A program made the translations under genes and the position numbers. The notes under the pieces were generated by a model that did not search any database, was not told the DNA's origin, and saw only the letters and a program-made list of their open reading frames with translations. Source: Kondoa subrosea (Eukaryota). Taken from it: a DNA stretch of 64,000 bases. The stretch spans positions 558,001 through 622,000 of the forward strand of contig BCIN01000001.1 of NCBI GenBank assembly GCA_039545335.1, in the 5' to 3' direction. Shown here in pieces: positions 7,847 through 63,067 of the stretch (position 1 is the stretch's first letter; every line of letters starts with the position of its first letter).

Positions 7847-9475
7847 TCAATGTCTCTGACGACTCTTGAGTTTCTTAGCAACGCGAGCGGCTTTACGGAG
7901 TTTGACCTGACCAGCTCTCTTGATCTTCTTATTTCTTTTGATCAAAGAGCGCAACATCACTTCCCTTTTCTTCTCCAAGGAACGCAAAACCACTTCTTTC
8001 TTCTGAAATCGTTCATTGGCTGATCGGATCAAAGTCTTTGCGTTCTTCGCTACTTTTGCTTCCACGATCGGAATTTGCCTTACAGCCAATTCATACAATT
8101 TCTTTGCTTCTTTCTCAACAGGTCGAGCTTGTCTATGAATATCCAACCATAATCGATGCATCTTCTCTGGCAACACCAACAAATCCGGTAGAGCCAAAAG
8201 GTAATGTTGAGCGAACCATTCGTACCCTACAGAAGCATGCTGGAGTGCTAAGAATTGCCATTCTTCCAATAAGCGCAAAGTTGCTTTGAGATCTTTCATC
8301 ACATCGAATTGGGAAATCACCATGAGGGAACGATTTTCGAGTTTGCCATGTAGTAGAGGACGACCTGCGATCGATGGACTGTTTGAGATGACCGCCTTGG
8401 AAGTAGAAGCATCGTTTCTCATAGTTGGCGATGATCGATGAGTTGGAATATTCGAAAGGGCGCAACGCTGGCAAGGGGAAGGTGCAGTTGCCAGAGCTTT
8501 GACATCCATCTTCATCTTGGGGTTCGCAACGTGAGCGGTAGCTGCGATCGAGAGGAAAGATGTAGGCGAAGACAAGAGTAAGACGAGAGTTGGTGCAGTT
8601 GTAATGGTAGGCGTAGGAGCTTCATTTGACATCGGCATAGCCTGCTGCTGAATGTCGGAGCGAGCAAAAGGCCATGCTAGAATACCAACATTGCCTTGAC
8701 CGGACATGAACGATGCACCGGCAGCAGCCAATAGAGCAATGCCGAGAGCAGCAGCGCTCCATACACCTTTAGCTCGAGTACTGGCAGCGAAGGTCGACAG
8801 GATAGACATGAGTGGATCGCGACGAAGGGCAACAATCGCTATAGTTTGAAGTAAGAACAAACCCGTACAGATGCAAATCAGCGCGGACTGACCAGCTTTA
8901 TTGACCTCCTTCGTAATGCTCTCTTCTTGGACCACAGATGGCTTGTTCTCCATCTCCCAATCAACCGTAGCACATAAAGCATCCAATTCTTTCTGTTCAA
9001 CGACAACCTCTTGCCCAACCTCAATCATCTCTTCTTCATCATTGTCAACTACTTGAGCGATCTTAGGAGTTTGCATCTTGATATCTGCTTCCAAAGGAGA
9101 ACCAGTATCGACCCAAGCTTGTTCATCATTGTTTGGATCAGGGAAAGAGAAAGACAAGCGACTAGGTGAAGTTCTGAGCTTGTGTCCTTCGCCAGATCCT
9201 TGTTGGTGTTGCTGTTGATCAGGTAAATAAGAAGCAGTTGGCGTATTATCATCATCACCCGAATCCGTCATCAGATCTCTAGTATCATCTTCGGAAAACT
9301 CGTTGACGAATTCAAAATCTTCATCAATGGAGATGTCAGACAAGTTTGAACCATCGAAAGTAGAGGAAGCGGAAGACATGGGAGAAGAAGGAGTCTTGAT
9401 GCTTGAATTGGGATCTTCAGCTGACAGTAAGTCCGTTGGAGAAGCAGATCGGACGTCTTGCTTATTGCTAGACAT
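7847..9475 (-). CDS. Hypothetical membrane protein: acidic disordered N-terminus, TM helix, basic coiled-coil C-terminus
   Basis: 547-codon ORF; TM-like VWSAAALGIALLAAAGASFM; probable in-frame GTCAGT...TATAG intron near 8840-8892. Confidence 0.7.
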   Translation of the reverse strand: MSSNKQDVRSASPTDLLSAEDPNSSIKTPSSPMSSASSTFDGSNLSDISIDEDFEFVNEFSEDDTRDLMTDSGDDDNTPTASYLPDQQQHQQGSGEGHKLRTSPSRLSFSFPDPNNDEQAWVDTGSPLEADIKMQTPKIAQVVDNDEEEMIEVGQEVVVEQKELDALCATVDWEMENKPSVVQEESITKEVNKAGQSALICICTGLFLLQTIAIVALRRDPLMSILSTFAASTRAKGVWSAAALGIALLAAAGASFMSGQGNVGILAWPFARSDIQQQAMPMSNEAPTPTITTAPTLVLLLSSPTSFLSIAATAHVANPKMKMDVKALATAPSPCQRCALSNIPTHRSSPTMRNDASTSKAVISNSPSIAGRPLLHGKLENRSLMVISQFDVMKDLKATLRLLEEWQFLALQHASVGYEWFAQHYLLALPDLLVLPEKMHRLWLDIHRQARPVEKEAKKLYELAVRQIPIVEAKVAKNAKTLIRSANERFQKKEVVLRSLEKKREVMLRSLIKRNKKIKRAGQVKLRKAARVAKKLKSRQRH

Positions 9476-9920
9476 TGTGAATGCTATCAAAACTATTCAG
9501 CCAGTGCTCGCATGCGCTTATGAGACAACGCACTTGTGCTTCGAGTACGAACAAAGGGAAGAGTCTCGGAATCTGACGGGCAAGGGAATGTATGGAGAGT
9601 CGATGGGCTGCACAAGGAGCAGTGAACAGCTATTCGAGCTGTAGCTAGACCGCAGCGTCAGTGAAAGAGAGACTCTTGTTTGCTTATCCCCCGCACTATG
9701 ACCTTTTTGAGGCAAGAGCTGCGCAAGCGACAGGAGACAGTGAGGTATATCCAAGCTGATAGATGCGGCGAATGAAGGTCAGATGAGGTAGAGATCGACG
9801 TCGCTGGTGAAGAACAAGAGTCGTCGGCAATTTCGAGTTGTCGAATCCGTAAACGTGATCGAATAGGGCAATTCGAAATTAGACAGAGCTCATGCATGGG
9901 AACCGCGCTAATATATACAG

Positions 9921-11913
9921 CTACAATATCTCTTCTTCAATCAGAACCTTGTTTCCCGCATCAACTGCACAATCAGCTTCTCCTCCGATATCCGGGTACA
10001 GGAAGTGAGAGAATCGAGGAGTCGGGAACGCTCGAACAGCAACAGGTAGATCGTCACTAGTAGGAGGTGTTGCGTAGCTAGTGGAGATGGAACGAAAGCC
10101 GATAGAGGCAAGAGAGCTTTCAGTTGGTATTTGAGAAACAGCTCTTGATTCTTGCGCAGGTACTTCCATCAATATGTCTTCTGTCTCTTGTACTGCTTTG
10201 AGAGTAAATATTGCAAAGGATTGCTCCGGCTCAGTACTCGATTTAGTGAGATCGACTTGCTGATCTGGTGTTTTGCTCTTGGATCTGCTTCTACTTTGGC
10301 GAGTAGGCGGTGCTAAGAATTGAGCAGTCACTTTAGGCGGTTCTTCATCGACTGATTCGTAGTACCAGCGAGGTTTCTTCGCCTTCTTCGGTCGGAATTC
10401 TTTCGGTAAAGCAGGTATATCGATATAGAACTGTGGTTTCGCCTACTTCTTGAGTCGCAAATCGACATAAGGCAGCGACTTTACTCACATTGTGTTTCCC
10501 TCCAGGCCAAGCTTTCTCGTCTTTTTTCTCCTTCTGTTTGCCCCAGACGTTCTGCTTCCCTTTGTTGCTTGTCCCAGCAGCACCAGACCCGCGTTTCCTC
10601 TTCTTGGTATCTGTAACCCAGTTTCTGTTCTTCTTGCTGGCTGATTTCTTACTGCTCGATTTCTGATCAGGGGAAGAAGCTAAACCTTGAGCTCGGCGGA
10701 AATGTTTCTCTGTCGGTCTAAGAACAGTAAGAGTTTCAGATATTGCTTTAGAAGCAGAAGAAGATTGTTGTTTAAGTTTAACAGAAAGTGTATTTGATGT
10801 AGAAGGTACAACGGGAGGTGGAGGAGTGAAGAGATCTGAATCCATACTTGTTGACGCGTCTACGTTGACTGGAGGTGGTTTGAGTTCCAGTGACACTTGT
10901 CTTGAACTGGTAGACGTAGGCAAAGCGGGTGAAGGGGGACGAGGTAAACTGAGAATTTCTTCAGTATCGCTGATTTCGGATAAGGAAGAAGATCCATCAT
11001 CAAGTTCGGAAAGAGAAGATTCGCTGTCGCTTTGAGAATCCGAATTGACTGATTTTCTGGGTGCGACTCTTAATATCGTTCGCAGGTTGCTTTGCATTCT
11101 GCGTTGTTCGAGTGCTTTTCGTCTAGCAGCTTGAGAAGAAGCGAAAGGTGAGTAAGTGATGGAGGTATTGATTTGGCCTTGATTTGTATTGAGCGTTTTC
11201 GGTAGAGAGCTATCCCTGCTCTTTTGAGTTATACTATTCAAGATGGACAGGATGGCTAGCATATTTGTTTGATCTGTCGTGTATGACTCCTGAATAATAG
11301 GTTGCTGGGATCTGAGAAAGGTATACGAAGGTACGGACGGATCAGATTTGAAGTCAGGTAGAGAAGGAGGACAAGATCCAGCTCTTCTCGCAGGTACTTC
11401 AGCCGTCGGAGGATAGGGAGAAGAGAAAGGAGAAATATCGTCCAGTCCGTCATCTGGAATCAGTAGCTTCGTGGCATGAGAGATGAAGACTGGTTCAGGC
11501 TTGATGATCGGTGCATCTTGCTGTTCATGCAGACTCGATAGTTGAGCAGCCTTAACAGTACCTTCTATTGCAGCTACCGGCTCTTGACTCGCGGAAAGCC
11601 TGCGACGTTTGCTGTCACAGTACATCAGCGTTCAGACGATATTCAAAACAAGTGTAAAGACTAACCGAGATTCCGTCTGATTCGCGTGTAGTATGCCCAT
11701 ATCGTGATCTTCTACTACTGAAATTGACCTCTCTTCAGCATAAGCCTTGAGCCGAATCTTGAGTCTCGGGCGATTCGCCAATGCATTTTGCGTTTCCATC
11801 AAAACAGGATCAGTCATTGGTGGGACCGTCACTCGAGGCGCTTGATACTTATGTAGGAGCATAGCATCATGCATCTGCATCGTATTGTTTGGCAAACTTG
11901 CGACGGACGACAT
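9921..11913 (-). CDS. Hypothetical Ser/Pro/Lys-rich disordered, probably nuclear, protein (3 exons)
   Basis: Three ORFs joined by GT-AG introns near 11610-11665 and 10445-10487; NLS-like SRKRRR and KKRKR. Confidence 0.65.
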
Positions 11914-19707: not shown

Positions 19708-22700
19708 CTATTCGTGTGATGAATCGAGAGTGGAGACGGTGTCTTGCAAATCGTCAATTAGAGATTTCAGCCTGATGTTGCCCTTCACCTGCATATCGCT
19801 GTAAGCTAAGAGACTTTAGGATTGTATTGGTCACTTACCATCCATTTGTCTATGTAACCCTCGTGCAGTGCAGTTTCCTTCGTCAGCGAGTCCGAGCTTC
19901 CTAATCCAGTCAGCGCAATGACTGTTTGGAACCATGTCAGTTGGTTACATTCAACACAGTCGTAAGTATAGACTTACTGCGAGAATGCGGCCACTTATTC
20001 GCCCGCTCCACTTCACGAGCTTCTTTCGCAAATTCGCAGCCGTCTTTCTTTGGCATACTATAAGCCAAGCTGTCAATCTCAGTGCATCAGGACCGTACTG
20101 CAGACCTACGATACATCTGTCCAAGCTGCGCATCATGTTTAGCGATTTCTGAGAAGCAGTTTCCTAGAAAAGTACATACTCGCATCTGGCTGAAAAGTCT
20201 TGAACTTCTCGAGTGCTTCTTCTCCGTCACACGCTTCGAGAAAGTCGATGGGCTCTCTTTTGACCATAGTGACTAGTATTTTGCGACCAATCGGATTATC
20301 GTCCACAATCAAGACTTTCAGGCGCCTCTTGCCTGACTCTACCATTTCGTGATAAGAGGACATCCTTTTCGCCTGTGGCAATTTTGGTGTGACCAGCCCG
20401 TTTGAATCTTTGTCGAACGCTGTGAGCATAACCTGCTAGCCAAAACGGATACTCACCTTTCACGATCGTACGTTTCATCGCAAATTTTGTGGCATCGGAA
20501 GCGATCTTTGTTTGATCTAGCGCTTTGGTGATTTTCATCGGCAATATTAGACTGAAAGTGCTGCCTTGCCCTACTACGGACTGCACGTTGATTCTATCGC
20601 CTTTCATGCGCTGGACGATATTTTGCGCGATGAACATTCCCAGACCCTTTTCAGAGAGAGGAAATCAGTAGATGATCACTAGAAGCGAAATATATTGGCA
20701 TACTGCACCACTTGAGAAATTGCTCTTCTGCACGAATGGCTCAAATAACACGTCAATGAAATCTTGCTCGATACCCATCCCAGTATCAGTAACCGACTGC
20801 AATATATTCTGTCAGGAAGGACTTTGGAGAAAGAATGAAGCTAACGATATGCATGTCCGTTAGATCCTCCGAACGAGGCATCTGCTTTACCGCTACGGTG
20901 ATTGATCCCGTAGGTGTGTATTTCAGCGCACTGTTTCGTTGTGTATTAGTAATGCCTAGGGAAATTAGCGATGCGACTACTTCGTAATAAGATTAACCAG
21001 CACTCTGAACCCATGATCAGTTCCGGACCGAGTAACAGCGGACAAGCACTAACCTCCTTAGCGAAGCAGGATGTGTCTTGACAAACCACTGACTCGGATC
21101 GCGATCTTCGACGTCGACATACACGTCCAAGCCATCCTTTTTCTGATCGCCAGGAACCTCGAAATCGGCATCAATTTTCACTATTAAAGTCCTTCAGACA
21201 CGGACAAAGCTAAGGGTATATATATACTTACTGTCGCGCATACAACACATGCGCGTTGTTTGCAAAACGAGTTCCTGCAAATCCACTTCGGCCATTTCGC
21301 CTAACGCTTCATTCTCTGGCGCAGAAGTTGACTGCATAATCTTTGAAGACTCAAGCACGTTCTATTGGTTCACGTCAGTGCTTGTTCTTCCCACGCACTA
21401 TCAATCTCGAACCTCTAAGATATCGCGTAAAGCATGCCCACAATACTCTGCAGTGTTGAGCAGACTTTCAGCTGTTTCCAAATCATTCCTTTTCACCACA
21501 TCTCTCAATAATTCAACGTGAGCTAAAACACTATGGAGAGGACTGTGGAAAGGAAACAGCGCTCAGCAAGACAATAAGAGTTTGAGAGCTTATTCCGACT
21601 GACGTTCTTAGTTCGTGAGACACTTGCGACACGAAGCTAGTTTTTGCTGCATCCGCTTTCTCCAATTTGACACGAACTTGACAAGCTAAAAGAATGCAAC
21701 CAATATTCGACAAGAAATTGGCATCTGTCTGCGTATAGACAAAAGAGGTTGAAGTTGTGCCGGCAAGAATGAGCAGATGAGGTCTTCCAGAAGTGAAGAA
21801 AGGGTAAGCTAGGTGAGCAGTAGTGTGAGGCGAAAAAACATCTTCAAAGCCCGAACGAATGCCTTGAGCTAGATTGAAGCGAGTATTTTGATTCTAAAGC
21901 AGGTTGAGCCAAAAGAGAAAGTACAAGCACAAAAGTACAACATACCGAAGCATATAAAGTTAAGAAGTTCTGAATTCGCTCCACCCCACTTCTTGCTAAT
22001 TCGTCAGCTTCAATCTTCATTCGATCCGAAGTATGATGGGAAATGATACTGATGCGACTTTGTTTGGCTGAGGTAGAAGAATGACTAGATTTCGCTGCAG
22101 GCGTGTCCCATAAGACGACTTCAGATATATCAAGTATGACAGCAGATTCGGCGTCGAGCAAATGTGTGGTCAAGTCTAGACCTTGCTTTGCAAAGTCTTT
22201 CTCTTTCCGTAGCGTGTTTGCTCCTCCAGTACTTCCAGACACATTTATAGTTCCAGTTGCAGAAGGTTTAGGGGATGACGAGGTAGATGCAGGTACTCTT
22301 GTGATAGAAGGTAGGACGAGGGTATCGGTCAGGAAATGCGAAATAGCTTCTCGCATGCCAGCTTCTCGATCTCTCCTAAATTGATCAAAATTGCCTTGAA
22401 CCTCTCGACTGCACATTGCGGCTACCTCTTGTAGTAGCTTGATCTGATATTGATTGAGAGGCGGCATGGTGGTATCGTCGACCACGGCCAAAACGCCTAT
22501 AACTACAGCTTCCTTTGTGCGAGAAGCTGCCGAGCTCTCTGCAGCTGCATTTGCGTCTCTACTTAGGAAAATCGGTTGACCGACATCTGTATGACTACAT
22601 AAGGAAAAGCCGTCAACGATACGAGGATTGGCACATACAGCTCTTGATCCAGCTATCTTTGAGCCATGGATTACCAGCGAAGCGCCAATCTCTTTGCACC

Positions 22701-23373
22701 TGTATTGATGAACAATATCAGTGCCGGAAGATATGTGCTTTGAAGCGAGACAAACATCGCGGATCTCCATTCTCTTCTGATCATTGGATAGCATAGCATG
22801 AGAACAGATAGCACATTCGTTGATGACGTCCAGACTTTTCATTTCCTCTGCTCTTCGACCACAAGCAGACGGTATTATTTGCCTGCCGTCTTTGAAGAGG
22901 GAAACGAAAGCGCAACGGCCCTCAAAGATGGAAGAAAGTAAGCTGGTGCATAAATCGAAAGCCGATTTCTGGATTTCACTATCGAGACGATATTGCTGCA
23001 AGAGTCGAAGCTGCTCTTTCTCCATCTTGCTAGGAGGCGCGGGTAGGAATCCATGCTCTTTGTAAAAAGCTCGCAATGATTCGGCGGTCTTCTTTGGATC
23101 CTTGTACCATTCTCCACTGTACATTTGGCTTTCAGCATAAAGGATCAGGCAGCAAGCATTTCATCCTCACGAAAAGGGGCTAGACTCAATAAGTCGGGCT
23201 TCCACATCTCGTTGAGCTTGATTCTCGGTCGGAAACTGGAATTGCGCTTGCTCAGGCTGTGTAACCTCACGACCCTCTTTGTAGTCTTCGAGAAACGCTT
23301 GCCAATCCTTGACCCCTTGATCTTCTCTCTCCTGCTCGGATTTGCTCTTCCCGGTGACGTCGCTGAATCCCAT
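19708..23373 (-). CDS. Hybrid sensor histidine kinase (GAF - HisKA - HATPase - receiver)
   Basis: H-box FVSQVSHELRTPLH, N-box NLITNALKYT, G1 VTDTGMGI, F-box LFEPFVQ, G2 GAGLG, receiver LIVDDNPIGRKIL...TWTDVSMP...IALTG; GAF-like AICSHAML. Confidence 0.92.
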
Positions 23374-24373: not shown

Positions 24374-25532
24374 ATGTCAGCGAGGCGCATCATAGCCAGT
24401 ACCAGCAGAGCGCTATCTACAGAAGTCTCATCAAGTAACTCTGCACCTCTTCTGCCTTCACAATCACTTGGATCTCGCTCAAATCCAAGTTTGTTCTTAT
24501 TTCATGCTGTATGGGCAGACACTCATGCTCAATCGTCTGTCACTCACAGAACCTCTCTCAAAAGTTTTGGAAAACGTTCATGTCCCTCTTCTGAACCTAC
24601 GCACTTCTTCTACCCCATCAAATCTTTTCGTTCCATTACCCGCATCAATCTTTGACCACACCTGTCATCCATCCCTCACTCATTTATTAGTCCGTCAACA
24701 TCTCGCTTCTTTACGTCAAGGTACACATGCCAATAAATCAAGATGGGATGTGAATTATTCCAATAAGAAGATTCAAAGACAAAAAGGAACTGGTCGAGCT
24801 AGAGTTGGGGATAAAGGTTCACCTATTAGAAAAGGAGGTGGAAGAGCTTTTGCTAAAAGTCCAAGAGATTATTCTTTTCATGTACCGAGGAAAATGGTGG
24901 ATAAAGGATTGAAAGCTGCTTTGAGTACGAGATGGAGGAACGATGAGTTAAGAGTTGTGGAGAATGTGGGTATTGATTGGGTTCAAGGAGAAGAAGGAAA
25001 AACTTCGGTCATGAAAAACATGTTGGATCAAAGAGGTTGGCTGGAAGAAAAGTCGGCCATCTTGTTCTTATTGGGTCAAGAAACGCTCAATAGCAAAGAT
25101 GGATCGTATTTGGAACGAGGTGTCAGGAATTTACAGAACGCTGAAGTGATGGATACGATGACAGGTCTGAATGTCTATCATTTGCTTAAACCTGCAAGAA
25201 TTGTGATGGACCTACAAGCGGTTGGAGAAATTTGCGAACGATTCTTACCCGAGGAAGAACAAGAAGCTAGAGCTATGATCAATGAAGAAGAATATCTAGA
25301 AGATTTGGAAGCGCTGGAAGCCCAATCGCAAGCTGAAGATCTGACCGAAGAAATCGAAGCCAGTGATATCACTGCTGCTCAAGATCAGTACGATGCTCAA
25401 ATGACTGATGCAGAATATGATCTGCTCTCTGACGAAGAGAAGGAAGCGTTCGATGGTCGCCGGATGGAGAGGGAATTGGCAATGATGCGAGAAGCGCCTG
25501 TTGTCGAGCAAGTATCAACGAAGAGTACATGA
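24374..25532 (+). CDS. YML6: Mitochondrial ribosomal protein uL4m
   Basis: RQGTHANKSRWDV...QKGTGRARVGDKGSPIRKGGGRAF; Arg/Ser-rich presequence; one intron. Confidence 0.92.
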
Positions 25533-36509: not shown

Positions 36510-38389
36510 CTACTCATCTGACTTGTGGACATGCGTCTCCGTATGGACTTTCACATTCAGGCCCGATTCAAGGTGACCGCCCGAAGCTGAATAGAAAGGG
36601 GCCATGGGAATATCGTTCTGCGTGAAGATGAGTTTAGAGTCATACAACATGCCAAGAGTGTACCTTTTCGCTGTCCAAATCAAGGCTGCGGATGCCCAAA
36701 TTATCTGCATGATCTTCCCGTCGTGAAATAGTGAAACCATGTTGTCGCTGAACCTTGGTACCTCGAGAGGTGGTAGTCGAGCCTTCTGCTCCGCTGGCAT
36801 TCCTGCAGACAAGTTGGACCAAAAGCGACACTATGTAATGTTCAGCGTACGACTACATGATTCGAGGTCAGGCTTACTGGCATAGATCTTGCTAATGGCC
36901 TCATATGTTGCAATGTAGTAGGTCACTTAGGTTAAAAACGTCAATATTATTGGCAGCGCCAGATGAGTCAGAAACTGACCCCTAGTCTCGACAAAGTACA
37001 GGATAGTCGTGACAATTTGTAGTCCAGTCGATAGAGCACAGCTTCGAAAGAGTGTGAGAAATGAGGCTTCTGTGAAGTGTATGATAGCCTTACGTGTTCA
37101 TAACCTTAACAGAGCAACTTAGCCGGGCAAAGACAGCAAATTGACAGTACTCACAATGATGCAAATCCTCACGATTATACCCTTAGTATCTTCAAAGGAG
37201 GTGCGAGAGTGTGCTTCTTTGAGCTTGAAGACCAGGATACTAGGTCAAAGATTATTTTGATTTACGAAACACAATGCGGAAAACATACCATGTGACAAGA
37301 ATATCAATGAAAGCAGAGACGGCCATCCAGGAACTGAGGCTTAGATGGTCAGATTTTGGTCAAGAAGCTCAAAGCTGTTAACTTGCCCATAAGTGCCGGC
37401 AATCGAGTCTGCGTAGATATTGCCGAAACCTCCAGAGTTTGGCTTGGGATAGACTAGGTCTGAAGGAAGATCGCTGTGTAAGTACATGTACTCCGGCTCA
37501 AGAAATGACTTGCATGCAATGACGATACCCTCGACCACAATGTACGAAAGTAATAGCCCAACGAAAGCCGCGAAGATGATTGCAAGCACTCTGTTATCGC
37601 CTTTCAGGAAGATATAGCATCGACGAGCGAAGTAGAACTATAGTGAATGTCAGTGGGAGCGGAACCTTATTTCTGGAAAATGCTTACTTGAACAGTCGCT
37701 GCGATCAATCTGGCGCACTCTATCAGACCTTGATGCAAGATGTATGACAACTGCGACTCACGCTGTGAAAGCTGCTCCTATCGAAAGACCCGCTGGAAGA
37801 TAGCTGTACGAAGATTAGATATTCTTGGCTAAGGTCCAAGGTACAAGAAGGCCTACTTGAGGTATTCGATGTCGCTAAAATGCGTAACATGCACTCTGAC
37901 GCAACGAAGAAGCATAAAGATGAGCGAAGTTGAATTGGAAATAGCTCTTGACATACTCGAAGAGCATTTGTGACAGACAGATAGTTTGTGCGACTGAGAA
38001 GAAGACTACAGCTCCGACTGTAAAGAAGATCGATTTGTGAGCGTCAAACGTGCCTTACGATGGTTGCACAATCTTACCTAGTATCTTGAGCCATCTACTA
38101 TCGACTCGACCAAAATGATAGTAATACTGAGTTGAGAATGATGAGACAGAGAGAAGAGCTAAGTGGTGGAATGCAGCTTACATGCCATGCTTGCGTCAAA
38201 ACAAATCTTTGTGACATATTAGCTCAGGGCGAAAAGGGAAAACAGAAGAAGTACCCTTCAAGAGCGATATTTAGTAAACCTGCAAACGCTGTTCAGAATG
38301 GAATGCATTGTTCAAGCTTAGACCTCACAACCAACGAATCTTGAGCCCAGTGATTTGAGCGCAGCATCGGAAACGCCAGCCTGCGACAT
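36510..38389 (-). CDS. Multi-pass membrane protein, paralog B (DUF6534-like)
   Basis: MSQAGVSDAALKSLGSRFVG...QFYFARRCYIFLKGDNRVLAIIFAAFVGLL...FKLKEAHSR...NDIPMAPFY; colinear with paralog A. Confidence 0.65.
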
Positions 38390-39124
38390 GTCAATAGAGA
38401 TCTGCGATTTGTATGATTTTCGACGAAGAGTGGGATAAGAGCAGCTAAAGAGGAAAACCAAACTAGATATTGACGCTCGGTCTTCACAGACCCTAGCGCC
38501 CACATCATAAACTCCATCATGTTTCGGCAGTCTCGAGCATTGCCCAGACTTTGATTCAAAGCGTTAAATCAGTTCAACGATATCCTAGAGACGATAGGAA
38601 GCTAGAACATTCCCTAGTGAGCTATTCAAAAGCGCATGGAAGGTATAGGATGCACTAGAGGTGCTTGACGACCGATGACAAGGTCCGCTTGGATCATCTC
38701 AAAGATCCCCGTGCGCGGAAAGGGAAGCGGTAAAACAAGTGTTGGCCTTGCCATCATGCCGATCAGTCGACTCCGAGCGGCTCCAAGCGTAAGACAAGAA
38801 GAACAAAGCGACGGGATCATCAGTCGAGAGTAGGCCAATCGACGTTTTTAGTCCAAATCTCGAACCTCTGTTACGCTATGGCGACTGCTGGTACCAGGTA
38901 GTATGTGTGCAGCCTTGTAGTCAGGTATCAACACATTACGGCGAGCATATTAAATAGAGATATGAGCGGATGCATGTTTGGTCGCTTCAGATGTAATTCA
39001 TCAAGGTCGTGTGATTCATGAAGGCTTGGCCTTGGCAGACAATGAAAATTGAAGCTAGTTCTAGGTATCGGGTGGTGGTCAGTCATAGTATCATGGCGGA
39101 TGGCGGATTATATTACCCTTTCGT

Positions 39125-40522
39125 TCAATCATCTTCCCACTCAATTTGCTTAGGCCGTATCAGGACTGTTTGACCAATGTCGCAATAAAGGAATTCTCCC
39201 TCTTGATCGCACTGATCTTCAACTTTTCCAAACTTGATTTGTTTCCTCTGACAAGCCGCTTGAAGTTCTTTGAGCGGAACATCGATTGGTTCATAATTGG
39301 CTGAAATACCACCTCGTACACTGAAATCTCATCTTCCAGAATCAGAATAAGTAATTTGATACAAAAAGAAGAAGACGCACGTTCCGAAATGCATTGCAAT
39401 ACTTGTTTTCGCTCGAAGATCTTTAGCTATATCGACTGAATCCCAAGGAGCGCAATGAACAGAACTCATAAGTCCAACAGGATTGAAAAGACCAATAGGT
39501 AGAAGAGCTAGATCGATAGAGATGATTTGACCCAGATGAGCGAAAGTTGGATTGACAGGTAAATCTTTCAGACGATCTTCGCCGACATAAGGGGACGGTG
39601 GATTGATAGGAATATCTAAGGAAGGCGGAACGACTCGGTAACCCGTATCACCTAATATCAAGCATTCAAATTTGCGCATTAGTTTTCGGGATGAGGGACG
39701 GACCAGCGAAGAAACACGTCAATTCTTTCCCCTCTTTTTGATGTTTGAAACTCCAAGAGCACCATAGAGATACATCTTTGTCCGTCGGCGTTCGTGCACT
39801 ATTGTGCTGAGCAGGAGTACAATACACCTCAAAATGAGCGTTGACTGATCGACCTTCCCACCAGTCGAGTTGAATCACATTGGCTTCAGGACAACCAATA
39901 TTGGATAGAATCCACTTTTTCATGCCTAGTGGGACGAAATAGATGACTTTGGGATGCAAGGCAAAGAGTTCTTGTAATGCTGCAAGATCAGTATGATCGT
40001 AGTGATTATGACTGAGCGCAATGATGTCGATTTTGGGGAGCTCAGAGAGAGTACAAGGAGGTGGGGAATAGCGTTTTGGTCCTAGGAAAGAAACAGGTGA
40101 AGTGCTGCAAGCGAATGAATATCTTACCTGACGGCTATGGAGATGCTACGAACCGTTCCGCAAAGACTGGATCTGCTAATACAGTGATAGAAGGGAATTG
40201 CAACAGCCAACTCGCATGTCCTAGCCATGTCGCACGTAACTGATCGGCTGAAGGTGATTGAAAAACAGGCTTGATGACTTGAACAGGTCTGTCTTTTGGG
40301 TCACTTGGAACTGGGACCGGCGTGGGCTTCGAAAAAGCGGTCTTCACAGCATAAATTCAGACTTCGCTCATTCATGCTGGAAGTTGATCTCACCTTGCCG
40401 ACTTGCAATAGGCTGATTCCATTACCTGCAGAAGGCCAAGGATTGCGAAAGCCTTTGGCTGTGTGGTGTGCAAGTGGCTCGAAGGGATGCGAGAGAGAAG
40501 CAATTTTTTGGATTGACAACAT
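39125..40522 (-). CDS. N-acyl-phosphatidylethanolamine phospholipase D-like metallo-beta-lactamase (NAPE-PLD/Fmp30 family)
   Basis: FRNPW, ATWLGHAS, DPVFAERTSP..LGPKR, LSHNHYDH, TPAQHNSAR, LWCSW, FFAGDTGY, LPIG, AMHFGT. Confidence 0.9.
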
Positions 40523-40671
40523 GGAAATGTCTTTCGATAATGGAAGGGAATGAGTACAAGGGAATCGTAAGCCAGGGGGGTATTTGAGTCTATGTGGACC
40601 AGTCACGCGGTATAGCAGAGCCAGTGTTGGGGTATATTTTCGTTGTCACAGGTTGACCTCAGACAGCATTA
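40523..40671. promoter_or_regulatory. Probable bidirectional promoter (NAPE-PLD / UPF0047)
   Basis: About 150 bp between divergent start codons. Confidence 0.5.
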
Positions 40672-41674
40672 ATGCCAGCACAGAAGCTACTCACACTTGG
40701 AAGGCGTTCTAAAGGAGTTTACCGTTCGCTGCCTTGATGTCTTCTCTATTTTCTCTTCTTCTCTTGATGTTATCTGTCTTGCTTAGTTGTGACCGATGAA
40801 GTCAAGAAAGCTATCAGCTCTGAATTAGCGGGCTGCCAGTAGATCTTCTTCTTCTCTGCTCGTAAGAAACGCGTCTTAATAGCTGGCAGGATTGGACTCT
40901 TGCATCTCTTTATTCAACACACAAGTGCTGCGTTATCAATTAATGAGAATGTGAGTCCATCCTTGTTACCTCTAGCTACGAGGTTCTCAGCCTATGCACG
41001 ATAGTATGATCCGGAGTACGTCGAAGGATACCGGTGTCATCTGTTCTTATCGTTCCGCGATCAGCGTGAGGACGGATATGTCGAACATGTCATTTCATGC
41101 ATCAGACCGTATGATATCCGCTGACGCTTTCACTAGGCTGGATACTGTAGTACCAGAGAGCTTTCCATGGAAACATACGGACGAAGGCGTCCGTCTTACA
41201 TCTTCCGCTGCCCGATTTAAACACTGAATTCGAGACAGCCTGACGATTCGGCTTCGCATACTAAATCATCTATCATCGGTTCAAGCGTTTCAATACCTAG
41301 TAAGTTCTTTCACAACATCTTTGCCAGACCGCAGCTGAACGAAAGATCTGCTTGTAGTCATGAATGGCGTAGGTTTCTAACTCTTCGCAAATTTTTGGCA
41401 GACACTGACTGCGAGCTTACAGAAACTTGCTCTTGGCACCTGGCAAGATAAGCTATTATTCCTAGCAGTCTTCTTATGTTCGTGCTCATTGTTTCTTACG
41501 CATCTATCTGTGCGAATTTCGCGAGTGAGTCCCGTCGATTTCACGCGACGACTGTACACACTAACCGTCAAACTTAGGATGGCTCATACACGAAAGGTGA
41601 CACTCGCTTCTATCATATACCTGTGACGCTGCTGATTATCTCGTGGAAAGGTTGTTGCTACGATCATCCCATAA
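40672..41674 (+). CDS. UPF0047/YjbQ family protein, ~140 aa in 12 exons
   Basis: Spliced: KGVYLVTDEV...[29 protein letters not shown]...VVPE..PWKHTDEGPDDSASHTKSSIIGSSVSIPI.NGKLALGTWQGIYLCEFR...RKVVATI. Confidence 0.9.
41448..41499 (+). other. Non-canonical AT-AC intron (52 nt)
   Basis: tggcaag|ATAAGC...gctcattgtttcttAC|gcatctat; its removal restores the conserved GTWQGIYLCEF. Confidence 0.75.
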
Positions 41675-41853
41675 GGATATCCAAGGATATGCAAGGATAT
41701 CGCTTCAAGGGCGCGAGGAAGATGAATGTACATTAAATGAAGATCTTCTCTGTGCAGCTCGGCTTTGACAGTGTTTGCTCAGTGTTTCTCTGAATTGCAT
41801 ATTTCGACATGGCTCTGTTCTTGACTATTCACCACCAATACCCTTTGGCGAAG

Positions 41854-42727
41854 ATGAGCCTGAATTGCCTTATATCCAATCTACAACGGCAGACTCTGCA
41901 ATCCACCTCTTCCTACACTCCAGTCCTCTCCCGTTCTATGCGAAACGCAGCACTCAAAAAGCTTCGACTCTTCAACAAAGCCAGACCACCTCTTTCACCT
42001 AACCCAGTAGCTTCAGGCAATCCTAAAAGAGATGCTACAGTTTATGGAATACCCAGGACACCTGCAATGATGTCGAGGGAAGTAACGAAAGAGAAAGATT
42101 CAAGCGATGATCATCCTTTATGGGCTTTTTTCCCTACTAAACTGGCTTTCAATACACCTGATAGAGTAAAAGATAAAGCCAGTCAGTTTCATCTCAACCC
42201 TCGCAGAAAGTGCGATTTGTATTGAGCAAATATTTGGGAGCAGGTCGATCTTGGAGTGCAGCTGAACTGAGAGCGAAATCTTTTGAAGACTTGCATCATT
42301 TATGGTATATCTTACTCAAGGAACGGAATGCCCTGTATACGGAAGCTGAGGAATGGAGAAGATCTGAAGTTAGGTTAACTTTTGGCTTTATACAAACCAA
42401 GATCTATCGCGTGCGTTCGCCTTCTTGTCCTTTGATCGTACTCTTGGCTGATGAGGATGAGGATAGTGCCGGAAAGGAATGGCGAGAATTAAATATGTAT
42501 TGAACGAAAGGCGAAGAGCAGCTATTCAAGCGTCTGAGATCATGCAAGAGGAATCGAGAGCTACATTGACAGGAGAAGAGCAGAGAGATATAAATCCTAA
42601 CCTGTTCAAGAGGAGTAAGAATCCACGGCCAAGGAGATCGAAAGCTCTGCAAAGTAGTAGACTCGTGGTTGAGGATTTTATGGAAGCAGGGACGGCGCAT
42701 GAGCAGACTGCTATACCCGCTGCATAG
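41854..42727 (+). CDS. MRPL4: Mitochondrial ribosomal protein uL29m (MRP-L47 family)
   Basis: DHPLWAFF...[29 protein letters not shown]...[15 protein letters not shown]; alternative in-frame ATG at 41809. Confidence 0.92.
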
Positions 42728-43096
42728 AGGTTGGTCTGAAATCAATGTTCATCTCTCGCTGTACATTGAAATGCAATCCAACAGATAGCCTGAATGTATA
42801 ATCTGACATTTGTTCAATTGCATTTGACCGTGCCTCTTTGCTGTAGTCTTATCTGGCGTCACCGGTACTACATATGATATCCTACTGACTTGTGCGTCTG
42901 TTCAAACGCTTCGGCATATCGAATTGGATCTCTCATTTCGGACTCCAGCAGTGCAGACGGAACTTGTATGATAAGATTGAATATAACCTCGTGAATTATA
43001 TACTTTGCTATGCCCTATATACGATATGCAACGAAGACAAAGACGAAACAAACCCAAAAACACAAAAACGATCTATACCCGTGTATGCTGAATAAG

Positions 43097-45507
43097 TTAT
43101 TGTCCTTTCGAGATGTCATCAAAGCACTGCAAATATAATGCATCAGTTGCTGACATGCTGTAAGGACACGAGGAAACACCTACTTGACATAAATCCCTGT
43201 CAAAGACATCATCACCACACCGTTCTGCTATTGTCACATCATTACAATTGAAGATCACAGGCCAACTGCGCTCTAGCGCGTGACCGAAGAAGGGATTTGA
43301 AGAGCCAGTGTTGGTGCCTTGATAATGATAACTAGTTACCACATCAGGAGAGAACAAGTTCTGGAGCAAAATAGAGACTCACTCTGCTCCTTCTTCGTGG
43401 ATCCAGCTATCATCGCCTGCTTCTATGATTTCGTCAAGCGTTTCGTATTTTCGTAAAGGGTTCTCCAAAATACGTTTCCTGCTGACGACGAATTGAGCAG
43501 CATAGGCGCCAAGCTGAGGTGTCTTAGGACAGAGCTACCACAAATTATGCAATCAGTCCGTGTTCATAAGTAATCCATGAATCTCAGACAAACCTCTTCT
43601 CTGAAAATGGAGTACACTTGAGCCATTCGTGGATATTCACCATTCCCTCTCGTGTCATGCCCACATTCCATAGGCACGTATGGGCCAAAAGCCAAGTATC
43701 CGGTTTCATTGACGAAAAGAGGCATTCTTGGTCTCGATATCCAACCCCAGCTTAGATGACTATTTTTCGACATCTTCAGCATAAGCTTTGGCATCTTGTT
43801 ATAGTTTGCACACTCACGCTTGTAAGAACATGGTATGTTCTGCCAATTGCTGCTTTTGTTCCGTAGCAGAATTATTCCAGCTAAACCAACTCTTCCTTTT
43901 CGACGCTACCAATTTCTCTTCCGGTGTAGTAGGCATCGAAGCATTATATCTCGATATGATATGTCTCATATATGTTCCACCTTCTCTTCCATAATTGGCC
44001 AACCTGAGTACTTGATCTGCTCCTGTTTCCTGTTTCAACCATTCGGTAGCTACTTCATCTTCGGATGCTTTGGCATAAATGGTAAGGATAGGATTCTTCT
44101 CCATCACTTGAGGTATGGAGCGAATGTATTCCAGTTGTTCTTTAAGCTCGTTGATCGGGTCTTGGTAATATGCTATAACAATTTCCAGCTGAGGCGGTCC
44201 ATCAAGATTGGTCGCTCTCGAGAGTTGGTTGGACAGTGGCGATTGTTGAAAGAGCCAAAGACAGAGAGGCAAGAAGGATAAGAGCATGCTGATATTCAGT
44301 CGGCGCGGCGAAGTGAAAACAGACGACGCAGAGGAATCCAGAGTAATGTGGTTGTACTCATCTTGCACTTCTGTTGGGGAGAGCCACTCTTTGATGATTG
44401 CTACTGATGAGAGGCCGAAAGCAAGAGCCAAAACTAGCGTTTGACTAGAATGGGTGAGCATTTCTGGAGCAAAGACGATTGCGACAAAAGCTTTCATTCC
44501 GAAGATTAGAGGAAGATCGGCTAGTTCCATTAAAGTAACCATATTTGCCAAAGATATCTGTTCTAGTGCTGATATAATCGAATAGAAGGCGACTACTGAG
44601 ATTGATAGCGCTTCATGAGACTTTGGGTGAAAGATAGAATGTACGGGCAGCAGGGCGAATAATGATATCGTTGAACATGTGAAGGCGATCTGATGACACT
44701 ATTAGCGAGATCCAAACGGGACCAAGAAAGATTGCATACAGGTGAACAAGCTGTCAGCAGTACACCCGCTGTAACATTTTGATTATGTGACCAACTCTTG
44801 AGGAGGATGAGAGTGAGACCTTGGAAGAGTACGCCAAGCAGTGTGAGTATCGTACTCAAGAAATCGGCGTTGAACGAATTCAAGGCGAAACCAACACATG
44901 CTGAAGTGAGAATAACGAGTAAGGTTAGAGGCTGACTGGCTGTTGGTAAAGAGAGGTATGGTAGTATACAGAATATGAGAGGTGCTGAGAAGATGGGTAG
45001 AGCTTGAAGTAGGAGATCTGGCGTCTTGTGTGCTGCTAAGCAGTAGGCTGTAGCTGTAGCCGATGCACATATCGCTGCAGGTATGGCATGCCGCAGTGTA
45101 CTCGATACTGAATCATGTCCTGATAACCACTGCAGATTCTCGGAGGCTGATCTTCGCCTTGTATGAGGCAGAAGGAAAGGTGCTCGCGACAGCAGACTTG
45201 TCACAGCGAATCCAACAGGCAGCAGTAGAAGCGTCGCGTTCTTGCTCTCGCTGACACTTTCCTGTGAAGCTAAGTTTGAGACCGTAGCTGTTGTCAAACA
45301 ATTCGCCAAGATATATGCCGCTGCCCATATCAAAGCCGTTCTTGAAGGCGGCACTCCGACCAGCGCTGGCTTCTCCCTCTTGTCCCATGGCAGCACTTTG
45401 ATCTGCAAAGCTGAATCCACCATTGTATCTTCGCTCGAAGTTCGCGAAGCTGGTTCTGGCTTTTCTTTGGCTTCGAATGAGCGCTGGCCTGCACTGGAAT
45501 ATGCCAT
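43097..45507 (-). CDS. Polytopic membrane domain fused to a C-terminal DUF3431-like domain
   Basis: About 10 hydrophobic segments, then LEIVIAYYQD...LANYGREGGTYMRHIISRYN...LAEHTMFLQAH...AQFVVSRKRIL...GHALERSWPVIF. Confidence 0.75.
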
Positions 45508-45713
45508 CAAGGCTCAAGGTATCATCCAAGGGGTCACGCTTGGGGTATCTATCCTTGGATATCGCTGTGTTTGGAAAAAATGCGCAGTTCTGCGAATTCG
45601 AATTTGTTATTCAAGGCCGCGAGCCATTTGATGCCGCGGGAGTCAATGATTATATGATCAGCATATAATGTATGAGCAGTGTTTTACATTATGGTACAGG
45701 CCGCTACGATCGA

Positions 45714-47958
45714 TCACGGTCTTGTCTGTTCAGCTCCAGTTATCGCTTCTTGCTCTTTCGTAATTGTTGAAGTCGGAGTACTAATCTTTGCTGCTGAGTT
45801 GTGCTTTCCACCCATGTACAGAGCTACATGATCCATCAGTAACCAAGAAGCTGCCCAAAGAAACTATTCACTTACCACACAAAGGTACTGCGATCACGAA
45901 GAAGGCAACACAAATGCCAGCCATGATCTGCCAACCTTTTTTAGGACCACTAGCGTCCAGGATTTGCCCAGCCATGACTTGAAACCAGGTCAGAAACAGG
46001 CGCAGCGACGCACAAAGTGACTCACTTGGTCCGACAAGGCTGCCAAGACTGAAGCTTGCGTTGAAGAAACCGAAGACATGACCCGTCCTGACAATAAATC
46101 AGCATGGGTCATTGAGTAGGAGTCAACATCAACATCAACACACCCGAGCGAAGCCTTCTGCGTTGCCAACAAACTCAAATCGCTCAGCAGAGGTACCATT
46201 GTTGCGCCCAAGATGGAGCCTTGGAGTCCCAGTAGGACAACAAATCCAGCAGGTGGTAGCTGAGGTATAATCAACATTGCCAGAACTGGTGTGCCGATAG
46301 CTAGGACCAGTACAGTGATTTTGCGAGGTCCATGTCGGTCCGCATAGTATCCCGTTACTGAGCAAAAGTCAGCTCGTAAGGAATTCCGAATTGGAATGCA
46401 CTCACAAGGCGAAACGACGAAAGAGGGTGCAACTGCAGCGATGAAGACCCTATACTGAACATCAGCTTGGGCTCTCTACTCTCTTTTTTCGCGTACAGTC
46501 CCGCTTGTAAGCTTGAGTAGCCGTATTTGGCATTCAGGTAGATAGTCATTGCACCATCCTGTTACATTCATTGGTTCTCGCGTTATGATCAGAGTCGCGA
46601 AGCTCACCAACAGGCCGCCAAAAAGAATACCGTCTACCGAGCGCTGCTCAGCATAGTACGTCACTTCCATTCATTCAAATCCACTCACATATCACTGAGA
46701 GGTAAGCTGCCGTTAGCGCTCGAGGCTGACAAAGCATCCACCAAATAGCTTTCAGATGTTCCGTCTCTGATTCTTTAGGTTCGTCCGTTTCTGCTATGGG
46801 TAAATACGGATTTGAAGTAGGTAATCGACCTATAGGAGTCATCCATCGGAAAGCAGTCTTGTGTTCGACAATGAGTACTCGTAGGACGATATCTAGTATC
46901 AAGAGGGCGATAGCGAAGTAGAAAGGTGCATAGTAGCCACACTACATAAATGATCAGACCTAGAAGAGCCTGCGCTGCAGCGAGAAAGACCTTGTTATAC
47001 AGAACACCACCTTTGGAAATGGCTCAGAACAGAGCCGCACTCAGCAGCATAGCACGCGCACCTATCGGAGGACTATATGAAAGACAGATCAATTGAGTGT
47101 CGTATGCAATCTTACAGATTCACTGACCCAATCAAGCTGCCGACGGAAAATCCCTAAAATCACCTAGAAATGAACTTGGATCTCACTGATCACCATAAGG
47201 AATCGACGCACTATCATAGCCTGTCCTATAGTAACTCCAACCTTCTCCCTGCATTTCATATTAAAGCGTGTTCAGGATCGTATAAGATAGCTCGGCTTAC
47301 GGTTCACAAGAATCGCAGATCAACGCTAGACCTAGTGTCCATATCGCTGTGCCAGAGAAGCCTTGAAACACAAGCGGACATGAGCACAACACACTCGGAT
47401 TGGTCTCAAGGTGCAGCACCTTGTAATATCCTCGCAAGTAGCAATACCCAAAACTTCCGGCCCAGCATGAATAATATCACTGCTCCTATCATGAAGACCA
47501 AAGCGAAAACGAGAGCTTCACGTCGATGTTTGAGCTTTTCCCCAAGATAGCCAATCGGTGGTGAAGATACGAGGAGACCGCCAGCTTTTAAAGAGATCAG
47601 CAATTGAGTTAGGTAGGATAATTCATTGGTATATACCATATGCCGCAACTAGCCATCCAGTAAGAGAAGCTATGTTGTCGTAGCCAAGCACCCGCAACCT
47701 CTGATTTACTCATATGAGCGGTCATCAATCCAAGCGAAAGGTGTCACAGACGAATGGTACGACAGGTACAATCAAACCATACAGAGCTATGTCTACCATC
47801 AAACCAATACTCATCGAGAAAGTGATGAAGGGTGTAGAGGATCGCCAGCGCAAGAAGTAAGGTGCGGTTTTCATGGGTGCATATATTGAACCTTTCATGT
47901 CATCTGCAGTGGTCTCTGCAGGCACTCCTTCGACATTCTTGTTGGCAGCATCGGTCAT
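45714..47958 (-). CDS. MFS transporter (DHA1 / vesicular amine transporter-like), many introns
   Basis: WRSSTPFITFSMSIGLMVDIALYGLIVPVVPF, SPPIGYLGEK, LLARILQGFSG, GPPIGGVLY, LRVLIVE. Confidence 0.88.
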
Positions 47959-60049: not shown

Positions 60050-62604
60050 TTAGCTTGATTTAGCTAGCATCTTCGTCCAATCGTATTTGTCGTACATCTT
60101 TCTGAAAGCATCGACTCGAGATTTATCGAAGTTTGCCTCGAGTCGTTTGGGTTTACGCCATGCTCTTGGTTCCAAATCCAGCATGCTTCCTATCGTTTCA
60201 GCCGCGAAGAATCTACAATACTAGAGTCAGACTGATTAGAAGCCTTAGCAGAAGAATCGCACCTCTCGAATTTCCCTCCGCCTTTCTCTGCTTCATCGAC
60301 ATCAAAGCCGTCAGCTCCGCCTTGAACACCATCGTGACCTTCAATGACGTGACCGTAGCCTTTCTCGCCTACCAAAGCAGGTCAGAGTTTGCCTTACTGC
60401 TGTTTAATCACGCTCACCTCGATAATCGAACTGAACCATGAAGTATGGCAAATCAGGGACCATACTCCGTCTGAATCCACCAGGCCTTTTACTGAAGTCG
60501 ATCAGCCGCTTATTGGTGGACCATTCGGATTCAGCAGCCATGATGCCTTCTTTAAAATAGCCTGGAGCATCTTCATAATCGTTCCATGCCAAAGGAACTG
60601 CTTCTATAACGGTATGTTTCTGCTGCCGCAGATTGATGACTGTTTCGTAGAAGACGACACCCTTATCCTGTTCGGCAAACATTTGCATAAGAGTTTTCAT
60701 GAAATTCTGCAATCGATAATTAGCATAAGTGAATGAAAATGGTGTAAAGCTTACCTTTATTTCCTCCCATGTGTCATCATCGCCCTCCAGACTCGACAGC
60801 TGATGCTGCAGCGGTACAATAAGGCAATGCCCATCGACCAGACCTTCAAATCGTCCTAGGGCAAGATATGCTCTTGTACCTAGAGCGATCATCGGGACCT
60901 GTGGTGGGACAGTCATTTCGTCTGTATCTTGATAGCAAAACATGCAGCTATCCAGCACTTTCTTTGTTTTGGCATAATCTGCCAGTCAATTGAAGTCAGG
61001 AAGCTGGCTAAAAGAGCACCTCAGATTCTCGACCAACCTTGAATAGCAAAGAGCTTCTTTTGATCATTTGTTCTCAGCTTCTTTCTCGCCATCCGTTCTG
61101 CTTCCTCGTCCAAGAAGTCCAAATCGTCTTTATAAGCCGCATTCCCTGCAATCCTCGCAGCAAATTCCGCATCCATCTCTTTCTGATCTCTTGGTCCACC
61201 TCCGAACTTTTCATGCCGGACCAAATCATCCAAAGTAGTTGTATCGTCATCTGCATTGTACCGCAGAACTTCTCCTTTTTCATCCCGAGATTCGAAATGC
61301 GGGTCTTTTCTCTTCCTCTTCTGATTCTTAGAGAGTGAAGGATCATCCTTTTCTGATCCACCTAAATCGTACAATCGACCTCTTCCATCTAAAGTAGGGA
61401 GCACTCGAACTTCCGTTCCGGTTGAAGTCTGTTGAGTTGGTCCTGCTTCCCTATGTCGAGCAAGTTCTTTCTCATACTTGTCTTCCAGAGCACGAGTATC
61501 TGATGAATCAGGGTCCATCAATTTGGCTTTCAGGACTTTGGCTTGTAATTTGTTCAATTGATCTTGTGAGAGTACTACAGCTGAGGATTGATCTTCAGAA
61601 GAAGGACGACCTGGTTTGCTGTTCATCCTGATTGGAGGAGTCAAGACTGATGGAATTGGAGTACCAGATTTAGGTGTAGCGAATCTAGAACCAGGAGAAT
61701 CGTTTGATAGATCAGCAGCAGAAATACCAGGTTTCCTGAAAGAGTTGTTCCTAGAAGGAGGTCGAGAGAGTTCAGCTTCTGAATTGTTTTGCGTGAAGAT
61801 GAATTTCGATGCTGAAGGAGTTGGAACAGGTGAATCGTTTCGACGTATTTCTCTACCAAATTCATCTACTGTAGGTTTATTCCTATCATCGAGAATCTGC
61901 TTCTCTTCTTGCGCTTCGCGGAAAGCTTCCATAGATCCATATCGCTCCAAACCAACTTCATCTACAGAACGACCTTCTTCTTCTGCTGTTTCATACACTC
62001 GACGCAGTTTGGCCATACGCCAAGTGGAACCGGAAGAACCAGCTTTAGGTTTAGGTGGTGCAGCAGTAGAAGGAGGACGATTGCCTGAAGCGGTATGCTC
62101 GACTTTATTCCCCTCTTTATCATAGATGGCTGTATTGAGTTCATAGCGAGACATCTTGACTTTATCAGGATCAGGAATAGTCTTGCTAGTATCTTTACGG
62201 ATCTTTGCATTGCCTAGACTGCCAAAGAAATCTTGCCCGTAACCATCTGTAGCATCCACTGCTTGTTCTAAACGTAGCGTAGGATCTGCTCCACGTCCAG
62301 CTCTCGGATCAAAGGTAGATACCGTGTCTTCGGAGACTGCTTTCTTTTCGTTTACCTTCGAGCCCATGCCTAGCCAATCTTCCCTCTTGAGCGCCGAGGG
62401 AGCAGAAGTGATGCTCAGAGATTGAGATGTGGGTATACTTTGCACGCTACTGGACGGCCCAGCATCTTTTTCAGCCCATTCATACTCGTCTTCGCCTGCA
62501 AGTTGGTCATCAATGACCCTCGAATGTTTGCTGGAGCTGCTGGATCTAGATGACTTGTGCTTCTTCTCGCTCTTGCGGCCTTCTTTATCCTTGTGTTTGC
62601 CCAT
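60050..62604 (-). CDS. CWF19: Pre-mRNA splicing factor Cwf19 / CWF19L2 (CwfJ C-terminal domains)
   Basis: GSTWRMAKLRR, ERYGS, QLNKLQAKVLKAKL, CMFC...GHCLIVPLQH...WEEIKNFMKTL...VFYETV...EWSTNK...LPYFMV. Confidence 0.9.
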
Positions 62605-63067
62605 CGGATCGTGGGTGTGAACAGATGTAAATCAACATCAATGACAATGACACTTCTGAGTGTTTAGACAGCCACAAAGAGTCTCTACGAGTATAAGTCG
62701 CTATTACTGCTGTCTATGTACAGTTCTTTAGCCCGGAGACAAACAATAGACAGTTGTGTTCGTCCGCACTTGATCTACGCGAAAGACATGAGCGGTCCAC
62801 TGGGGATAATTGAGTCGCTACTGGAGAACTTTGCGACCTATAGCAGGTAGCTAGACATACTGAGTTGATTTTGATTAGCAGTCCTACGGATTTCAGGCAT
62901 GTTTTGCGTCGCGCAAGAGAAACGAAGACCGCATTGTCAGAACGATGCAAGATATGCAATTGAAGCTGAGGTAATATCTATGCAGGTGATCAAGCAAATG
63001 CTACAGAATTCTCTATAGATGGTTCAGCTATGAGTGACATTGCGTATGAGAAAGCACTAACATATTT

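Follow-up and report, generated by a model that had tools for sequence, protein, structure and literature searches.

The UPF0047/YjbQ-family gene analysed here raises the question of how a conserved protein motif is read across a DNA segment that begins with AT and ends with AC, and which machinery would remove that segment from the transcript. The gene lies in a 64-kb stretch of DNA, which we call the window and which is eukaryotic and intron-dense, with a GC content of 45.7% and 0 Ns. A sequence-only reading of the window had proposed that the segment is an AT-AC intron carrying the signals of the major (U2-type) spliceosome.

The UPF0047 gene and its ninth intron

The gene occupies 40672-41674 of the plus strand (ATG at 40672, stop at 41674) and was modelled with 12 exons and 11 introns, giving 138 codons plus the stop. 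The spliced frame is 417 nt long and encodes 138 amino acids with 0 internal stops. The product matches YjbQ homologs over its full length, with full-sequence E values of 9e-51 to 3.6e-46 in the 24 phmmer rows listed, and this end-to-end similarity (E ~1e-50), together with a GTWQG-IYLCE(F/H)R motif, identifies it as a member of the UPF0047/YjbQ family (PF01894). Single exon pieces searched with the Pfam PF01894 model gave 22.8 and 15.9 bits, under the cut-off of 27. To collect YjbQ homologs, one exon-bearing frame was used as the query of a word-based search; of the 204 candidates, 56 proteins reached E <= 0.01.

Ten of the 11 introns, all on the plus strand, are GT..AG and 48-63 nt long. These are introns 1 (40724-40786), 2 (40839-40889), 3 (40951-41004), 4 (41016-41064), 5 (41089-41136), 6 (41189-41238), 7 (41300-41357), 8 (41369-41422), 10 (41525-41577) and 11 (41597-41650). 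The remaining one, intron 9 (41448-41499, plus strand), is AT..AC, 52 nt long and in phase 1, within the Gly codon of the GTWQG motif. The intron density of the gene (40672-41674) is extreme, at 11 introns per 417-nt coding sequence, and micro-exons of 11 nt each are found at 41005-41015 and 41358-41368 alongside other exons of 19-25 nt.

Exon 9 (41423..41447, plus strand, 25 nt) ends in TGG CAA G, which places AAG immediately before the AT, and exon 10 (41500..41524, plus strand, 25 nt) reads GC ATC TAT CTG TGC GAA TTT CGC GA. The intron between them starts with ATAAGC (41448-41453) and ends with TTAC (41496-41499). Exon 9 encodes K-L-A-L-G-T-W-Q and the first base of a Gly codon, with bases 2 and 3 of that Gly followed by I-Y-L-C-E-F-R in exon 10. 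The corresponding motif, (T/I/L)WQG(I/V)YL(C/M)E(F/H)R, is unbroken in the ten homologs inspected of the 56.

The boundaries of intron 9 were examined by an excision scan, in which donors at 41425-41479 were combined with acceptors up to and including 41522, with the other ten introns fixed and without a splice-site prior. The 867 in-frame, stop-free excisions, as well as the unspliced form, were scored against a profile of the 56 YjbQ homologs. Removal of 41448-41499 (AT..AC) gave 189.9 bits, the single top score among the 867. The next three excisions reached 186.1 bits, with the conserved Gly replaced by Asp and with arbitrary ends. The sequence-only reading had named a GT/GC-AG junction as the finding that would contradict it; at the sequence level the canonical pairs in the scan were just two, both GC..AG, of 37 and 40 nt, which scored ~160 bits, destroyed GTWQG and are shorter than every intron observed in the window. 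No workable GT/GC..AG alternative to the intron 9 junction was found among the 867 scanned excisions. No shift of the boundary yields an identical mRNA, because 41447 is G where 41499 is C, and 41448 is A where 41500 is G.

We also used a home-made spliced protein-to-DNA aligner that accepts any terminal pair, with penalties of 0 for GT-AG, -3 for GC-AG, -5 for AT-AC and -10 for all others. The aligner chose 41448-41499 with 4/4 guide proteins. Of the ten remaining introns it recovered 8 with the guide L009 (the gene model of an ortholog described below), 9 with P0003, 10 with P0050 and 7 with P0001; its misses concerned an 11-nt micro-exon, intron 2 and the divergent C-terminus. With its boundaries fixed by homology, intron 9 starts with AT and ends with AC, as do introns of type II (discussed below). 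Since AT..AC is one of 256 terminal pairs, its appearance by chance at boundaries forced by homology is unlikely (~0.5% from base composition, by our own estimate). The observation of an AT..AC intron at 41448-41499 is confirmed, and the earlier claim that removal of this 52-nt ATAAGC...TTAC segment restores GTWQ-G-IYLCEF proved exact, with the excision unique in the scan and in the alignments.

Two further possibilities are that the segment is joined at some other unconventional junction, or that it is dealt with outside the spliceosome, for instance by Ire1-type cleavage or by translational bypass. Nothing positive supported either of them, and taken together we judge them very unlikely. All neighbouring excisions score less and have arbitrary ends. 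Ire1 sites follow the loop rule CNG/NNGN (the slash marks the junction), which neither end of intron 9 matches, and the RNA fold of the intron 9 region is no more stable than those of shuffled sequences (z = 0.09). Against translational bypass, the Gly codon is split 1+2 over the gap, beyond the reach of a ribosomal hop.

A reading on the opposite strand was also considered. The reverse complement of 41448-41499 opens with GTAAGA, and an AG follows at 47 nt, probably by chance. Removal of 47 nt would leave the frame unrestored, so this antisense GT-AG mimic has no bearing on the sense gene, and no antisense gene across 41448-41499 is evident.

Base calls, host placement and an orthologous intron

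The runs listed for 36800-46700 are two DNA runs, X1 and X2, with no RNA run among them; both come from a single sample, from which the assembly was probably made. Contigs built separately from the two runs (word depth 143.6 and 53.9) show 0 differing letters, gaps or joints against 40600-41750, and a consensus slip at 41448 or 41499 is ruled out by them. The agreement of X1 and X2 does not amount to independent support, because the runs come from the probable source sample, and this is the one point that favours the view that a normal GT-AG intron was misread or misassembled at both of its ends. The sequence-only reading had pointed to G at 41448 and 41499 as the mark of such an error; the contigs of both runs, from this same probable source sample, carry A and C. 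Two errors 51 nt apart giving exactly AT..AC would be very unlikely in themselves, and we put the chance of this explanation as exceedingly small.

The placement of the host draws on two other genes of the window. The mitochondrial uL4 gene (24396-25532, plus strand) lies farther upstream of the UPF0047 gene, and the top named matches of its exon are Microbotryomycetes at ~40% identity. The glycerol kinase gene (55608-53279, minus strand) was modelled with a guide protein, P0177, and has 13 GT-AG introns; when one of its exons was searched, Phenoliferia and Mixia gave the top named matches. In a maximum-likelihood glycerol kinase tree of 16 rows that we selected, the window protein falls in a 100/100 clade of eight Basidiomycota rows, within which it joins the Pucciniomycotina rows at 86/88. 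This one gene tree and the two best-hit lists support a host in the Basidiomycota, near the Pucciniomycotina. The nearest row to the window glycerol kinase is P0177 itself, 96% identical over 523 columns. The P0177 contigs are ~1.7 kb, too short for introns, and a very close relative of the host is therefore probably represented in public environmental transcript data. Among the remaining neighbours, a Lactamase_B_2-domain gene (39329-40145, minus strand) lies upstream of the UPF0047 gene, and the gene for mitochondrial ribosomal protein L47 (MRP-L47; 42177-42503, plus strand) has its start ~150 nt past the UPF0047 stop. Four long open frames on the minus strand (7847-9496, 10345-11631, 21844-23160 and 61021-62631; 428-549 amino acids) gave no Pfam matches at E <= 0.001.

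Orthologs of the gene were sought in metagenome contigs with a pattern consisting of W-Q-G (first base of the Gly codon), a gap of 40-70 nt and then G (second and third bases)-(I/V)-Y-L-C-E-(F/H)-R. The scan returned 29 loci, of which only two, L009 and L014, are intron-bearing fungal orthologs, and these are 99.4% identical to each other. Among the other loci, bacterial yjbQ genes without introns account for 21 of the 29, the pattern having picked up an L-A-G codon run that lies 56 nt upstream; one (L023) is of the same bacterial kind with the 56-nt gap and has partial matches only, and five are chance matches with no YjbQ similarity. The same pattern gave five chance matches on prokaryote genome contigs and 0 matches on viral contigs.

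The L009 gene (L009:789-1680) was modelled with eight introns, seven GT-AG and one GC-AG, and also encodes a 138-amino-acid product. The L009 protein aligns to that of the window without gaps, with 89/138 residues identical (64%). At codon 117 in phase 1, the site of the AT-AC intron, L009 carries an intron of 51 nt that runs GTAAGC...TTTACAG. The 5' hexamers, ATAAGC in the window and GTAAGC in L009, differ solely at +1. This is the result expected from the earlier proposal of a G to A change at the first base with a compensating change of AG to AC at the end, which had called for a look at orthologous introns; the intron at the same codon and phase is in the GT-AG state in L009 and L014, which stand for one ortholog species at 64% protein identity. 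Codon 117 phase 1 is the one exact intron position common to the window gene (11 introns) and L009 (eight). Similarity between the two intron bodies is too low to call them alignable, and no synteny between L009 and the window was detected within the 3 kb compared.

Three more pairs of introns in the two genes are offset by 1-4 nt, at codon/phase 35/2 in the window and 36/0 in L009, 59/2 and 59/1, and 85/0 and 86/2. Sliding of introns or their independent gain could explain these offsets, as could minor errors in the models. The GC-AG intron of L009 (L009:1098-1150; GCAAGC...CCAG, 53 nt) lies near the GT-AG intron 4 of the window gene.

Splice signals and the type of intron

As a local background we used 23 introns, made up of the ten GT-AG introns of the UPF0047 gene and the 13/13 GT-AG introns of the glycerol kinase gene, which are 48-70 nt long. 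A CT..TC gap of 66 nt seen with a uL4m guide (P0057) was treated as an alignment indel and left out of this background.

The 5' splice site of intron 9, ATAAGC (41448..41453, plus strand), follows the local GTNNGY pattern except for the A at +1. Compared with CAG/..AAGT outside positions +1 and +2, AAG/ATAAGC agrees at 5/7 positions, which ties with the best five of the 23 local introns, none of them scoring higher. Save for +1, the site follows the U2 consensus in the manner of published cases with /ATAAGT, from which it departs in having C instead of T at +6. At the other end, the pyrimidine-rich tract and 3' splice site (41483..41499, plus strand) finish in TTTCTTAC before the GC of exon 10; 12/15 bases ahead of the terminal AC are pyrimidines, and this fraction of 0.8 ties with the top three of the 23 local introns.

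The sequence-only reading had held that the length of the intron and its GCTCAT branch-like site match the ordinary introns of the window. The length does; GCTCAT (41484..41489, plus strand; A at 41488, 11 nt from the 3' end) turned out to be one of two candidates. A strict CTRAY branch site, present in 12/23 of the background introns, is missing from intron 9, which contains two YTNAY sites, CTTAT and the CTCAT within GCTCAT. CTTAT (41473..41477, plus strand; A at 41476, 23 nt from the 3' end) belongs to a type that is the sole YTNAY site in 4/23 background introns, at 15-27 nt from the end, whereas CTCAT is the sole such site in 0/23. The 11-nt distance of GCTCAT fits the local CTRAY sites, most of which lie at 11-16 nt, and the L009 intron has GCTCAAT in a similar place near its 3' end. 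On these comparisons CTTAT appears to be a branch-site candidate at least as good as GCTCAT.

The missing CTRAY site is the evidence that favours a second possibility, that intron 9 is unspliced or poorly spliced, with AT-AC the product of two chance mutations in a disabled copy or in a gene with an altered C-terminus. Retention of the intron costs 40 bits of profile score (149.6 bits), and it is improbable that chance changes would fall at exactly +1 and the last base and give the one pair known to be workable in the U2 spliceosome. Downstream of intron 9, 15/21 residues are identical to L009 in the correct frame (our count on the alignment), compared with 89/138 for the whole protein, which argues that this frame is still under selection and that the intron needs precise removal. 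With this identity, 0 stops in 417 nt and the ten other introns intact as GT-AG, the gene looks alive, and we judge a failure of splicing to be quite unlikely.

Would the minor (U12-type) spliceosome be a better candidate? AT-AC introns in animals and plants are mostly of this type, with 353 U12-type and 24 U2-type cases in a table of Sheth et al. 2006 (PMC1557818), and a basidiomycete might have retained the minor machinery. In intron 9 the U12 5' site ATATCCTT and the U12 branch sequence TCCTTAAC are both absent. Its 5' site, ATAAGCTA, departs from the RTATCCTT pattern, matching TATCCTT at 4/7 positions where the background introns match at 1-4. The best match to TCCTTRAY is 6/8, against 5-6/8 in the background, and its A lies 7 nt from the 3' end and not at the ~10-15 nt of a U12 branch site. 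The earlier statement that U12 motifs are lacking is borne out by these scores, which are no better than in the 23 local GT-AG introns. The orthologous intron of L009 is an ordinary GTAAGC..AG intron. An Rfam search of the 64-kb window gave 0 matches. Larue and Roy 2023 (PMC10639083) report no convincing minor introns in Ascomycota or Basidiomycota, describe them as completely absent from Dikarya, and give Basidiomycota as without most minor snRNAs. The sequence-only reading had likewise taken Dikarya to lack the minor spliceosome, which agrees with this report and with a host in the Basidiomycota. A U12-type intron is, on this evidence, highly improbable. U12-type AT-AC introns share only their terminal dinucleotides with intron 9, which is without their 5' site and without their branch sequence at 10-15 nt, in a host group reportedly without the machinery. 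The U2-type AT-AC reading is the best-supported interpretation of the sequence.

U2-type AT-AC introns are a known class. Sheth et al. 2006 (PMC1557818) describe as type II those AT-AC introns that have an otherwise good U2 5' site, count 24 among 610,067 introns of five species, and mention a hypothesis that xylanase genes of filamentous fungi carry such introns. A strong consensus, /ATAAGT, is given for U2-type AT-AC introns there and by Gould et al. 2016 (PMC5029451). The type II introns of human SCN4A and SCN5A (Wu and Krainer, cited in PMC1557818) are like intron 9 in their AT-AC ends and good U2 5' site, which is /ATAAGT in them and /ATAAGC after AAG here, and, as they are described there, both kinds are without a U12 5' or branch motif. 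Unlike them, intron 9 lies in a basidiomycete whose introns are 50 nt long and whose 5' site, GTNNGY, is loose, and for it we infer removal by the major spliceosome from sequence.

Among fungi, an engineered AT-AC actin intron splices in yeast (Parker and Siliciano 1993, cited in PMC5029451), and a natural AT-AC form is nested in RPL30 of S. cerevisiae, where it accounts for 1-2% (PMC5029451). These cases resemble intron 9 in that A at +1 and C at the last base compensate for each other in a fungus without a minor spliceosome. The RPL30 form is a side product with a 5' site unlike /ATAAGT, whereas intron 9 has a consensus-like 5' site and its removal is required for the conserved UPF0047 protein. 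In RNA-seq-guided gene models of A. niger, P. chrysosporium and T. lanuginosus, AT-AC junctions make up 0.03% (Reid et al. 2014, PMC4084796); these are alike in being rare, in Dikarya and of the third pair treated as legitimate in annotation pipelines. Frey and Pucker 2020 (PMC7072748) report AT-AC to be rarer in fungal annotations than in plant or animal ones. The fungal bulk counts and the xylanase hypothesis (PMC4084796 and PMC1557818) come without an orthologous GT-AG counterpart, which intron 9 has in L009. Three further papers, PMC3091305, PMC5389616 and PMC12230235, came up merely for the term 'KS-AT-ACP' or for lists of methods and had no bearing on fungal AT-AC biology. In the partial library that our literature search covered, no paper described an AT-AC intron for a UPF0047 gene or for the Pucciniomycotina.

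Origin of the AT-AC intron and its meaning

Taken as a whole, we think it probable, with good confidence, that intron 9 is a real spliceosomal AT-AC intron, removed at 41448/41499 by the major spliceosome and derived from a GT-AG intron. The last ancestor shared by the host and the L009 fungus would already have had a GT-AG intron at this codon and in this phase, and the present ends would have arisen by two substitutions, one replacing G with A at +1 and the other replacing the final G with C. Either A at +1 or C at the last base alone is known to block the second step of splicing, and the two together restore the interaction between the first and last bases of the intron. Intron 9 could be recognised by its remaining signals: the AAG before it, the AAGC that spans +3 to +6, the pyrimidine-rich 3' end and, as branch site, either CTTAT or CTCAT. 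The splicing of the intron, its machinery, its branch point and the direction of change are what we infer from the DNA, and the direction and timing of the change from GT-AG to AT-AC are drawn by parsimony from one distant ortholog species.

It is conceivable, if rather unlikely, that the locus records something more general, in which an old GT-AG intron, conserved in position, crossed a two-mutation valley in a little-sampled, Pucciniomycotina-like lineage and is now removed constitutively by the major spliceosome. In that case checking of the terminal bases may be relaxed in this lineage, and further AT-AC introns may be spread through the genome; alternatively, the intron may provide a slow, regulated step for this gene. 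The sequence-only reading had raised a rate-limiting splice step as a possibility.

Intron 9 is a further case of a known, rare kind of intron that has already been counted in Dikarya, and it leaves current knowledge of splicing unchanged. Its added value lies in the orthologous GT-AG counterpart and in being a clean case for annotation. In a group reported to be without the minor spliceosome, a natural AT-AC intron is here paired with the GT-AG intron that occupies its position in an ortholog, and the pair illustrates the compensation between first and last base that yeast genetics has established. How a lineage passes through the defective single-mutant intermediates is a further question that the pair poses. 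Gene finders limited to GT/GC-AG introns would break this gene at its most conserved motif, a warning that extends to other intron-dense basidiomycetes.
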